Source: Escherichia phage EPFV3-03/2025. From it: a stretch of 64,000 bases of DNA. The DNA is taken from sequence record PV435126.1, one strand, 5' to 3'. Below are positions 49,144 through 53,166 of the stretch, piece by piece. Position numbers and translations under genes: made by a program. The stretch's first letter is position 1. Each line of letters opens with the position of its first letter. The notes beneath the pieces are model-generated. The model saw only the letters and a list, made by a program, of their open reading frames with translations. It was not told the origin of the DNA and searched no databases.

Positions 49144-52100
49144 ATGAGCATGTGGTCGTTCGATTTTGAGGCCTCTGGCTTGCTGGAAGACCCAGATCTT
49201 TATTATCACTGCGGTTTGTTTAAAGAGCTGAATAAGAACCGTTTTATGCTGTTCCTCCCCCTAAATGACCGCACACACTACTCTGAAGAGGATGTGGAGA
49301 AAGCTAAGAACTTCATTCTGGCAAAAAAGACCCTTTATACAGATTTTGAGGCTCGCATAGCAGATTTTTCAGAGTTGGAAGGCTGGCTTACAGGTAATTC
49401 AGATTGGTCACCTACGGCTTTGAACTGTCATAACTGCTACAGCTACGACTTTATGCTGATGGAAAGATTATCCGGTATTCATTTTGATATGTTCCGTGAT
49501 CCTAAATGCATGGGAACTATCAACGACCACCAGGTTAATCTGTTTGATACGTTAGCGATGAGTCGAATCTTGTGGCCTGACCGCCCTTTGCCAAAAGGTT
49601 GTCCGGACGCAGTATTCAATCCAGTTACCAAGAAAATGCAGCCTGTTGGGCCTCATGGCCTTATGGCATGGGGCTATGCCCTTGGTAACCAGAAAGTTCA
49701 AATCGATGACTGGCGTGAGCTTCCGCTGTGGAAGTATGTGGATCGTGTGTTCGAGGACGTTATCATTCAGGAGTTGCTCTGGAAGGAGTTGGTAGCTGAA
49801 TCAAAAGGTGTATTCTACGGCAAATCTGACATGCAGAACTTTATGTATGACCCTGCCAAAGAGAAGCCTAAAGGATTCAAGAAGATTACCTGGAAGAATG
49901 CATTACGCCGAGGCATGCTGCAGCATTTCCTGATGGAGCTGCAGGCTCGACAGGGTGTGTATTTCGACATAGATGGGGCTATTGCTTTACGTGACCGCTG
50001 CGATGCGTGGATGAAAGAGATCGCTGATCGTGTTGAACCACAACTTCCTTTAAAAGAGTTATCAATGTCTCAGCGGCCTAAGTTCCCTGAAAAGCCGTTT
50101 AACCAGGATGGGACAATCTCTAATAACGGTTGGAAATGGTTAAAAGACAAGCTTGGCTATCCTGTGGATATGGGTGCTTTAGAATTCAAAGCTCCGCCTA
50201 AGCGAGCCTTTACCTCCACAGGAGATGTCAGCAAAATGGGGATAAAATGGTGTGAAGAGATGGGCTGCAAAGACCCCGATAAGATGGCTGATTTCTTAAG
50301 GGGGTATATTAAAGGAACCTCTACACCGCACCCTTTACCTAAAGAACTAATGGATCAGGCAATAAGTGATCTGCAGCAGAAGCGGATGCCTGACTGCAAG
50401 ATACCTATGAAGATCAGCAACCAGGACGACATCAAGCGATACCTGATCAGTGCTGGTTGGCTCCCAACAATGTGGAGAACTAAGGATGTAACTAAAGACA
50501 GCAAGAAGAAAGCTTTACCTGATGCAGATGTTGATGCACGAGTATATGCATATATGGACGAGCTTTTGGAGTCAGAGTATTGTGACCTGATTATCAACTT
50601 CTGGAACAAAACTGATGCCAAGTTCCAGACAACCGTGCACAAGTTCCGAAGCTTCCCTAACTCAGAAAGGATTAAAAAGGAAGTGTTTGGGAAGATACGT
50701 AGAAAAGCCAGAGCGCTTATTACTTCTCCGCAACTGAAAGATACGTTTGGACACCTGTGCCCGAATCTTGAAAAATTGAACGGGGAGATGGCTAAAGATA
50801 TCGTTTTGTGGTTATCATTGCGAAACCGCAGATCGGTCCTTGATCCAATCAAGGAGGATAAGGTTGATACTGGTCTTCTTAATCATCCACGTTTGAAGAT
50901 TGACCATAAGCTTCCTGCTAAAAGTTCTGGATTAACAAACACTTCAAGACAGAAACACAGCATTTGTGCAAACATGCCTAAACCATCTCCTAAAGTGGTT
51001 ATGGGTAAAGAGATGCGTAGTCTGTGGGGTGTTCCTCCAGGATACTTTGAGATCGGTATTGACGGGTCTAACTTAGAGCAGCTTATTGGGGCTTGGGGTG
51101 CCTTTGAGTTTGACAACGGCCTGTATTATGATGTTGTAAGTAACGGCGATGCACACTGTTATTCAGGAGATACACAAATTCTCACGGAGAAAGGGTGGGT
51201 GAGGTTTGAAGATCTTGATCCGGGAACACAAGTGTTCCAGTACGATCACAACACCTCGTCGATGAACCTTGTTACTCCATTAAATTACGTTAAGCGTAGT
51301 TATTGTGGGGATATGTATCATTTCCACAACAGCAGTGTGGATTTTATGGTTACAGATCAACACAGGATGCTGACCGTGGATCACAGAAGCAATAAATTGT
51401 TTGAAGATTTGGCAAAAGACCTGAAAGCAGGTAAAGGGTCTAATTCAGGAAGAAGGTTTATCCATGCGGCAGAGTTTTATGGGAATACAACCTTATCTCC
51501 TGCCCAGGTTAATTTGCTTATTGCTATTCACGATGATGGGTACTTGCATACAAATAAGGACGGCAGCATCGTGTGCAGGATTCAGGCCGGGAAGGGCAGA
51601 AAAGTTGCAACGCTTTTAGATACTTTTTCTGCTCTAAGCCTTAGTTATGTAGAGCAGAGCGGGAAAACCACAAAAGGAGGCTTACTGGCGAGAAGGTTCC
51701 AATTCCACGTTCCGTCCTGGGTATTTGAGTTTTTGGACAGCAATAAGGATTTCACCTACAACCTGATGGACCTTGATAAAGAATCTAAAAACCTGTTTAT
51801 AGCTTCTTTATCTAACTGGGACGGGTGGGTATCTCCCGAAGGTGGAAAAGTTGCCTACTACTCTCAGGCCGAGTGCAGGAAGAAATCTGTAGAGGTTGTG
51901 TCTGCGCTGGCTACTCAGTGTGGTTTACGGAATAATACGGTGGCGATTCACAAAAAAGGTCGTTCCGTACAGCACAGAATCACGATTGGTAGCAAACAGA
52001 GAGCAGGGTTGCTGACACTATCTAAAGAGCCTGTCGGGGTGAGCGGTTCTTTGGTTTATTGCGTTACCGTCCCTTCTGGAGCAATCATTGTGAGAAGGAA

Positions 52101-52536
52101 TGGTAAAGTGGCAGTGTGCGGTAACTGTAATAACGCCAAAGCTTACTCTTCTGTAGCAGGCAAGGAGATTTCCCGTAACGATGGTAAGCCTGTCACGTAC
52201 GGTGTTATGTACGGGGCACAAAAAGATAAAGTTGCAGACATGCTGGATATCTCTCCAGAGTTGGGGCAAAGGGTAATCGATGCGCTTTGGGATGCCAACC
52301 CAGGTCTTAAGGGGCGTAAAGAGGATCTGGAGAAATTCTGGGAAGCAACAGGTAAGAAATTTATCTACTCTTTTGACGGTCATGCCATCTGGACCCGATC
52401 TAAACACTCTTTACTTAATGCATACCAACAGAATGGTGGTGCATCGTTGTGTGACTTAGTTGGGATACTCATGCACCACCAAATGGTGAAGCGTGGGTGG
52501 TACGATGAAGGTGTCCGTCGTATTATTTATTACCAT
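49144..52536 (+). CDS. family A (T7-like) DNA polymerase, exon 1, containing an in-frame intein
   Basis: ExoI-like FDFEASGL and YHCGLF at the N-terminus; motif A-like GIDGSNLEQLIGAW; motif B-like RNDGKPVTYGVMYGAQ. The track ORF stops at HK* exactly where motif C (HDE) is expected; reading resumes in exon 2. Confidence 0.8.
51157..52125 (+). mobile_element. intein with LAGLIDADG-type homing endonuclease domain, inserted in the DNA polymerase
   Basis: 323 codons between polymerase motifs A and B. Begins CYSGDTQILTEKGW (intein block A), block B-like VTDQH, LAGLIDADG-like LLIAIHDDGY and FIASLSNWDGW, ends ...VAVCGN followed by Cys (+1). Flanking exteins (NGDAH / CNNAKAY...) align with the T7 polymerase GDIH-TKNQ region. 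Confidence 0.75.
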
Positions 52537-52812
52537 AAATAACATTGTGGCTTCATAGAGTAATCTATGTCGAATAACCTCTTTAACTGCGGGAAGCCTA
52601 AACCTTATGGCAAGGTAATCCGCAACGAAGCGCTCAAAAGAGCGAACGCTCAGAGGCCATTCCGAAAGGAAGTAGACCAGCAAGTGCGGTCGAAATGGGA
52701 GGATTCCTGTGGTTGCTTATCATAGGAATATGAGATGGTCCGATCCTACGTGAAAACGTATGGCTATGCACGTAATGGTGCGGGGTAGCTTAACGACCTA
52801 CCTGAACTATTG
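52537..52812 (+). ncRNA. group I self-splicing intron (no ORF) in the DNA polymerase gene
   Basis: 276 nt between exon 1 (ends ...YYH, last nt U) and exon 2 (DEYQ...). P-like AACUGCGGGAAG (~52585), Q-like AAUCCGCAAC (~52617), R-like GUAGACCAGCAAG (~52670), S-like GAGAUGGUCCGA (~52731). Possible P1 pairing of exon CCAU with intron GUGG; intron ends in G. Confidence 0.7.
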
Positions 52813-53166
52813 GATGAGTACCAACTTCAAGTCCCTGACACGCCTAAGTATAAGACTGTGTACACCTTCGACACAATTGAAGAACTGGAAGCATTTAAGG
52901 CAGAACAGGAGGCCAAACTTCATGTGTTTGACGGTCATAAGTACAAAAAGGCACGCAAGGATGAGAACGGAAACGAAGTGGTTGACAGAGACGGAAACAC
53001 GGTGTACGATCCTATTCTGAACGATGACGGAAAGCTTGAACTTATCTGGAGCCCTGTGGGTGAAATGGTGGTGCATTGCTTCTGGCAAGCTTCTAAAATG
53101 ATGGGCGTCCCGTTCCAGATCACAGGTGAATACCTGTGCGGTCGTAATTGGGGTGATTGTCACTAA
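52813..53166 (+). CDS. family A DNA polymerase, exon 2 (motif C to C-terminus)
   Basis: In the track as ORF 52810-53166 with an artefactual TTG start. Encodes DEYQLQV... (completing HDE) and ends ...GRNWGDCH, paralleling the T7 polymerase C-terminus ...GPNWAICH. Confidence 0.75.
   Translation, partial: DEYQLQVPDTPKYKTVYTFDTIEELEAFKAEQEAKLHVFDGHKYKKARKDENGNEVVDRDGNTVYDPILNDDGKLELIWSPVGEMVVHCFWQASKMMGVPFQITGEYLCGRNWGDCH

Follow-up and report, generated by a model that had tools for sequence, protein, structure and literature searches.

The window, i.e. the whole stretch of 64,000 nucleotides of Escherichia phage EPFV3-03/2025 (PV435126.1) analysed here, carries a DNA polymerase gene which is interrupted twice, by an intein and by an insert of 276 nt. 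The 15 kb around this insert are 92-96% identical to Vequintavirus (rV5-like) coliphages, with Escherichia phage YP-6 as the best match. Genes for a DNA cytosine methyltransferase, a primase/helicase and a T7-like family-A DNA polymerase follow one another there in this order. The features of the polymerase gene are the following.

49144-52536, plus strand: DNA polymerase exon 1 (family A, T7-like), which includes the intein and ends in ...Y-Y-H (CAT); placed from the ORF 49144-52542, tblastn against the intron-less YN3 polymerase and alignment with T7 DNA polymerase up to H653.
51157-52125, plus strand: intein of 323 aa (CYSGDTQ...VCGN/C), just before motif B and 411 nt upstream of the intron site; absent from the rV5 and YN3 polymerases, with a Hint_2 match in its N-terminal part and matches to the AceL NrdHF intein (6zgq) and to intein-bearing PHROG families.
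52537-52812, plus strand: group I intron, 276 nt, ORF-less, of IA2-type architecture; from RF00028, the boundaries given by intron-less alleles and covariation.
52812-52812, plus strand: terminal guanosine (omega-G) at the 3' splice site, invariant in nine homologues, with the junction fixed by the intron-less alleles.
52813-53166, plus strand: polymerase exon 2 (DEYQLQV...GRNWGDCH, stop); from tblastn and from P10, which is 97% paired in the homologues.

The exon-1 polymerase frame, which starts at 49144, reads ...RRIIYYH with CAT (52534-52536) as its last codon and is closed directly afterwards by AAA TAA (52537-52542), and exon 2 opens with GAT GAG at 52813 in a frame running on to GRNWGDCH, a typical family-A C-terminus. 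In the phages YN3 (L007) and slur16 (L008) the polymerase gene is unbroken, with a length of 2778 nt coding for 925 aa, and the junction reads TATTACCAT/GACGAATATCAG, the exon-2 side beginning with GACGAA, as compared to TATTACCAT[276 nt]GATGAGTACCAA in the window. Because no other boundary gives the YN3/slur16 junction, the intron corresponds exactly to positions 52537-52812, the very interval that a preliminary description made from the sequence alone had proposed. The predicted spliced protein was 100% identical to that of YN3 over the 179 aa tested, and its C-terminal region was aligned to T7 DNA polymerase through ...MAWVHDEIQV (H653-D654-E655). From this alignment (H653/D654) the intron lies between the histidine and the catalytic Asp-Glu of motif C, in agreement with the earlier description of an intron that splits off motif C. 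The interruption at YYH/DE was common to all the intron-bearing loci for which the rV5-type protein allowed the exons to be mapped (L001-L006, L011-L014, L017), and two Vibrio-phage loci were placed at SYH/DE from their sequence.

The covariance-model search that the preliminary description had suggested as a check gave a match to Rfam RF00028 of 64.7 bits (E 4e-14, 52527-52762, full model 1-253), above the gathering score of 50 bits. The introns of rV5 and 241Ecol014PP also scored 64.7 bits, and the two intron-less sister loci used as controls gave no match with RF00028. When Rfam matches up to E 0.1 were admitted, the RF00028 match was still the sole one in the 64-kb window. The sole ORF inside the intron, of 52 aa (52567-52725), overlaps the core helices and has no Pfam match, in line with the earlier statement that no homing endonuclease is encoded. 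The Rfam score, the exact excision deduced from the intron-less alleles and the covariation of the core helices described below all bear out the compact ORF-less group I intron that had been proposed. [quoted passage not shown]

The structure was analysed on nine introns aligned with MAFFT, consisting of the window intron and eight same-site homologues from other phages. Four of the homologues are ORF-less, those of JLBYU08 (329 nt), Avunavirus 18-1-2 (317 nt) and the Vibrio phages K470 (254 nt) and 10AMN (253 nt), and four carry an HNH gene, those of Phage 203, SSE121, LTH01 and CR9 (772-842 nt), from which the HNH gene was removed by hand from the P6a loop. The two Vibrio-phage introns of 253-254 nt belong to the same family, so the description of the 276-nt intron as near the lower size limit was overstated. 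A P1-P10 model of conventional type was derived from the sequence of the window and applied to the nine-intron alignment; the columns of P5, P6a and P7.1 could not be reliably aligned, and these helices were judged by eye or from the minimum free energy (MFE) fold. The elements of the model are the following.

52533-52550, plus strand: P1, formed by exon CCAU (52533-36) and internal guide GUGG (52547-50); Rfam alignment, with 4/4 pairs invariant in nine homologues.
52554-52569, plus strand: P2 hairpin, CAUAG/CUAUG; 5/5 pairs compensatory, 100% paired.
52578-52583, plus strand: P3 5' strand, with its partner at 52697-52702; 6 pairs, 100% paired, 2 compensatory.
52585-52626, plus strand: P4 (52588-93 / 52619-24), enclosing a short P5/P5a (52596-52616); from pair counts, P4, P5 and P5a being also given by the MFE fold.
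52626-52648, plus strand: P6 (CG/CG) and P6a (CGCUC-AAAA-GAGCG); P6 invariant, P6a from the MFE fold.
52648-52659, plus strand: R element GCUCAGAGGCCA, with the P7 5' strand formed by G52653, bulged A52654 and G52655-A52659; the Rfam consensus GUUCAaAGACUA aligns here, and P7 is 100% paired.
52660-52671, plus strand: P7.1 hairpin, UUCC-GAAA-GGAA; from the MFE fold, and by eye in relatives.
52672-52691, plus strand: GUA linker (52672-74) and P7.2 hairpin GACC...GGUC (52675-78 / 52688-91); GUAG invariant, P7.2 100% paired.
52697-52702, plus strand: P3 3' strand; pair counts shared with the 5' strand.
52704-52728, plus strand: P8 hairpin; 5 outer pairs, 100% paired, 3 compensatory.
52732-52743, plus strand: S element GAGAUGGUCCGA, with the P7 3' strand at 52736-52741; from the Rfam alignment and pair counts.
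52745-52763, plus strand: P9 hairpin with a GAAA tetraloop (52752-55); 7 pairs, 5 compensatory.
52768-52802, plus strand: peripheral P9.1 (52768-81) and P9.2 (52784-802), beyond the Rfam model; 1 and 3 compensatory pairs, respectively.

Across the nine related introns, standard pairs were found in 98.5% of 536 cells, compared to 34-42% when the 3' partners were slid by 1-3 columns, and 24 of the 60 pairs showed changes on both sides. The observed pairing and covariation were reached by none of 500 shuffles. Compensatory pairs were present in each of P2, P3, P4, P7, P7.2, P8, P9, P9.1 and P9.2, and the core helices P3, P4, P7 and P8, which include the P3/P7 pseudoknot, were 94-100% paired with 1-3 compensatory pairs each. 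In P7, the compensatory changes are U-A to C-G and G-C to A-U; an R element with AGACUA goes with AUAGUC in S, and AGGCCA goes with AUGGUC (the U-A to C-G change). The P7.2 pair 52678-52688 was found as C-G, G-C and A-U. A complete ribozyme core, compensatory changes included, is retained in the insert; a mere spacer would not have kept it. Secondary-structure folding, the other computational check suggested beforehand, recovered P2, P4, P5, P5a, P6a, P7.1, P8 and P9, but with a modest z of only -2.83 and by a method that cannot show the P3/P7 pseudoknot.

P1, including the wobble U52536.G52547, the pair G52655-C52740 and the terminal G52812 were invariant in the nine introns; the pairing of the last U of exon 1 with a G of the guide GUGG and the intron's ending in G had both been recognised before. 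The P1 pairs are C52533-G52550, C52534-G52549, A52535-U52548 and U52536.G52547, the last of which marks the 5' splice site, and the stop codon UAA (52540-42) that closes the exon-1 frame is located in the P1 loop. P10 is formed by the first four bases of exon 2 (GAUG) with CAUU 52543-46 and was paired in 97% of the homologue cells. G52655-C52740 is GC in 9/9 introns, with A52654 unpaired between G52653-C52741 and G52655-C52740, and is probably the guanosine-binding pair.

The earlier assignment of the conserved core elements was right in part. Its P (52585-52596) and Q (52617-52626) correspond to the 5' and 3' strands of P4 and its S (52732-52743) is the 3' strand of P7, but its R-like element GUAGACCAGCAAG (52672-52684) consists of the GUA linker followed by the 5' side of P7.2, whose local partner is 52688-52691. 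The R/S pairing claimed for it (52675-78 with 52737-40) was found in 77.8% of cells, with the fourth pair in only 1/9 introns, as against 100% with the canonical R, and was rejected. The introns of subgroup IA2 have P7.1 and P7.2 between P7 and the 3' strand of P3, joined by G-U-A (PMC3428280). The same arrangement was found in the window, where UUCC-GAAA-GGAA, GUA and GACC...GGUC are followed by P3', the P7.1 part being seen by eye and in the MFE fold only. By eye, P7.1 appears as GCC-GARA-GGC in SSE121, LTH01 and CR9, and as UCC-GAAA-GGA in an intron of a T7-like phage.

An identical 276-nt intron (100%) is present in rV5 (NC_011041), RudolfGeigy (MZ501102) and YP-6, and in LL12 (MH491969) and 241Ecol014PP this site is likewise occupied by the 276-nt insert, the 551-nt region spanning it being 98-99% identical. 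These Vequintavirus carriers differ from the window only in the surrounding polymerase, with the intein present in the window, YP-6 and 241Ecol014PP. Rough counts from BLAST identity bands gave about 23 records with the 276-nt form and about 55 with 329-nt or HNH forms, and other vequintaviruses with polymerase tails at least 95% identical appear from BLAST to be intron-less. The site is polymorphic among near-identical phages, being empty, occupied by an ORF-less intron of 253-329 nt, or occupied by an intron with an HNH gene in P6a or P5; the place of the HNH gene in the P6a loop was given by the ORF position at four loci (L002, L013, L014, L017). In this region, E. coli vequintaviruses are matched at 98-100% identity by about 15 records named 'Campylobacter phage' (MG0656xx) with C. 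jejuni as the stated host, and these host labels look doubtful.

The intron is real but already known, since in sister phages the identical sequence already bears an intron annotation and has been noted in a publication. The LL12 polymerase CDS is annotated as 'intron-interrupted gene', and the LL12 genome announcement (2019) describes the polymerase as 'disrupted by predicted intron sequences'. In the RudolfGeigy record the polymerase CDS is joined, and the BASEL table credits this phage with 4 introns and 1 homing endonuclease. The rV5 paper gives a 775-aa polymerase and mentions introns solely in the terminase gene (PMC3606486), and the rV5 RefSeq record splits the polymerase, with two ORFs called in the intron region. 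These are gp222 and gp221 (window 52567-52725 and 52760-53020; L001 4668-4826 and 4861-5121), which lie within the intron or out of frame over exon 2, and gp220 ('DNA polymerase') begins at an internal ATG that leaves out motif C. The 86-aa ORF among these matches PHROG 31536 (E 1e-54). These CDS calls are probably artefacts, and PHROG 31536 was probably built from such annotations. Neither a secondary structure nor a splicing assay of the Vequintavirus intron was found in the literature.

Other insertions were seen in the same gene and in related ribozymes. A second group I intron is located just after motif B (...TYG/) in the polymerase gene of Avunavirus 18-1-2 (L011 914-1117), Certrevirus CB7 (L012 1446-2116) and Seunavirus SSE121 (L013 358-999); with the intein site counted, at least three insertion sites of selfish elements are clustered in the palm/fingers part of the gene. 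For parts of the ribozyme, matches of 73-85% identity were seen to introns in other phage contexts: the 3' domain (P8-P9.2) matches a Vibrio phage nrdB intron and a region beside a Pakpunavirus polymerase (L016 1803-2033; SPA01, L015 2001-2080), and the 5' half matches the Av-05 terminase intron. These partial matches suggest that modules may have been exchanged between introns.

As the intron codes for no homing endonuclease of its own, we considered how it could have spread. It could be mobilised in trans, by 'collaborative homing', through an HNH endonuclease encoded elsewhere, either the one carried within P6a by alleles of the FV3/Phage-203 type or the free-standing one that follows exon 2 in 241Ecol014PP and in Vibrio phage K470, with the empty-site junction GGTGTTCGTCGTATTATCTATTACCAT/GACGAATATCAGCTTCAAGT as candidate target. 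We consider this possible, though less likely than not. It is consistent with the presence/absence polymorphism among near-identical phages and with the layout in 241Ecol014PP, where the same 276-nt intron is accompanied by a free-standing NUMOD4/HNH gene that follows the polymerase at a distance of 20 nt (L006 5288-5935) and whose product shares 33% identity with the HNH from the Phage 203 intron; Vibrio phage K470 shows the same layout, with an ORF-less intron and an HNH gene directly downstream of exon 2 (L009 1994-2641). Within its first 12 nt, exon 2 shows four synonymous differences between the intron-plus GATGAGTACCAA (52813-52824) and intron-minus GACGAATATCAG (L007/L008 3687-3698) alleles, and the catalytic Asp codon is GAU, giving an A-U pair in P10, in 9/9 intron-bearing alleles and GAC in 2/2 intron-less ones. 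These differences could reflect immunity of the endonuclease site or co-conversion, but they could be explained as well by the P10 constraint or by plain linkage. Against mobilisation in trans, a tblastn search with seven intron-associated HNH proteins gave nothing significant in the 64-kb window, and the free-standing HNH gene of 241Ecol014PP is lacking at the equivalent place. The stages found at the site, which are the empty site, ORF-less introns of 253-329 nt, ORF-less introns with a free-standing downstream HNH, and introns with the HNH inside P6a or P5, might represent preserved examples of the stages proposed for mobile group I intron formation, at the His/Asp-Glu site of Vequintavirinae and Vibrio-phage polymerases, with the window intron possibly spreading by collaborative homing; we consider this scenario to have less than an even chance of being right.

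The preliminary description had considered it plausible that the endonuclease of the neighbouring intein mobilises the intron. The intron would in that case be carried along by co-conversion of flanking DNA. The end of the intein is 411 nt from the intron site, a distance within the range of phage co-conversion tracts, and its 323 aa are long enough for an endonuclease domain, with the LAGLIDADG-like motifs LLIAIHDDGY and FIASLSNWDGW recognised by eye. Searches of Pfam, PDB and PHROGs with the intein, though, gave Hint/intein matches only and detected no endonuclease domain. The intein is absent from rV5, YN3, LL12 and RudolfGeigy, and among these rV5, RudolfGeigy and LL12 have the same 276-nt intron (identical in rV5 and RudolfGeigy). 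In comparison with intein-less alleles, identity fell to about 80% only in one 150-nt bin spanning the intein insertion site, but was 95-98% in the two bins between this site and the intron and 99-100% in the intron itself. Carriage by the intein is thus unsupported and very improbable, and trans-acting homing is the more plausible of the two. Most likely, the intron persists by vertical descent together with recombination or trans-acting homing during co-infection.

Regarding expression, membership of the group I family points to the standard two-step, guanosine-initiated transesterification. The pre-mRNA would fold into a P1-P9.2 ribozyme, in which the internal guide CAUUGUGG would base-pair to both exons, through P1 (U52536.G52547) at the end of exon 1 and through P10 (GAUG) at the beginning of exon 2. 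Free guanosine held in the P7 pocket (G52655-C52740, beside bulged A52654) would attack after U52536; G52812 would next occupy the pocket and the 3'-OH of exon 1 would attack after G52812. The exons would join as CAU/GAU, restoring ...YYH-DEYQLQV..., i.e. motif C with the catalytic Asp and Glu, and the predicted spliced junction is TATTACCAT/GATGAGTACC in RNA/cDNA and ...IIYYHDEYQLQVPDTPK in the peptide. Ribosomes on unspliced RNA are expected to halt at UAA 52540-42, yielding a polymerase without motif C. Splicing of the RNA would leave the 323-aa intein in the coding sequence, so an active enzyme would require RNA splicing and then protein splicing. That the insert does not splice and that two polypeptides, exon 1 ending in ...YYHK and a re-initiated exon 2, assemble as cited for Aeh1 NrdA split by mobE, is hardly credible. 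In its favour, the stop two codons into the insert does close exon 1, a TTG at 52810 shares the frame of exon 2 and might in principle initiate a C-terminal fragment of its own, and non-splicing insertions in phage genes are on record (PMC7344957). Against it, the split would part the His from the catalytic Asp-Glu within motif C, no Shine-Dalgarno-like sequence was seen by eye just ahead of TTG 52810, where P9.2 ends 8 nt upstream, the full ribozyme core with its compensatory changes is kept in the insert, and the homologous CB7 intron splices (PMC7344957), so that this split-subunit reading was rejected on the motif-C position, the ribozyme covariation and the CB7 precedent.

Biologically, the intron brings no surprise, since group I introns have been known at precisely this phage-polymerase site since 2004, according to the account in PMC3428280. 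The practical value lies in annotation, as the rV5 reference and many relatives still have a split polymerase with 'hypothetical proteins' (gp222 and gp221 in rV5) inside the intron, and one such spurious call appears to have become a PHROG family. The covariation-backed structure corrects the core assignment and puts the intron in IA2 at Pol I site 881. Judging from the gene sequence, a single polymerase gene may need both RNA splicing and protein splicing for activity.

Pol I site 881, which corresponds to T7 H653/D654, is taken here to be His881/Asp882 in Klenow numbering. The CB7_50 intron of Pectobacterium phage CB7 (Certrevirus) is a homologue at the same YYH/DE site, with 73% of the intron aligned at about 75% identity, and is spliced in infected cells as determined by RT-PCR and Sanger sequencing (PMC7344957). 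The introns of CB7, CR9, SSE121, LTH01, FV3 and Phage 203 have the HNH in P6a and a length of 687-842 nt, unlike the ORF-less window intron, and in CB7 the HNH gene starts in P5 and reads through P4'. The insertion site is shared with the polymerase introns of the T7-like phages PhiI and W31, which PMC3428280, citing Bonocora & Shub 2004, places at Pol I site 881 in subgroup IA2 and reports to self-splice. In JeanTinguely, a T7-like BASEL phage, a 601-nt HNH-bearing intron (RF00028, 36.8 bits) was found at GTGCAT/.../GATGAG and is probably of the PhiI/W31 type. By eye it resembles the window intron in the site, the CAUUGUG guide and the R-P7.1(GAAA)-GUA-P7.2 layout, but such T7-like introns differ by the HNH gene, by the P2-P6, P8 and P9 regions and by a short 3' tail; T7-like phages were absent among the matches and organism names listed for the intron BLAST, which gave no link between the two ribozymes. 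SPO1, SP82, Bastille and Pf-WMP3 also have group IA2 introns in family-A phage polymerase genes but, unlike the window intron, at Pol I site 674 in the fingers subdomain and carrying HNH nicking endonucleases (PMC3428280).
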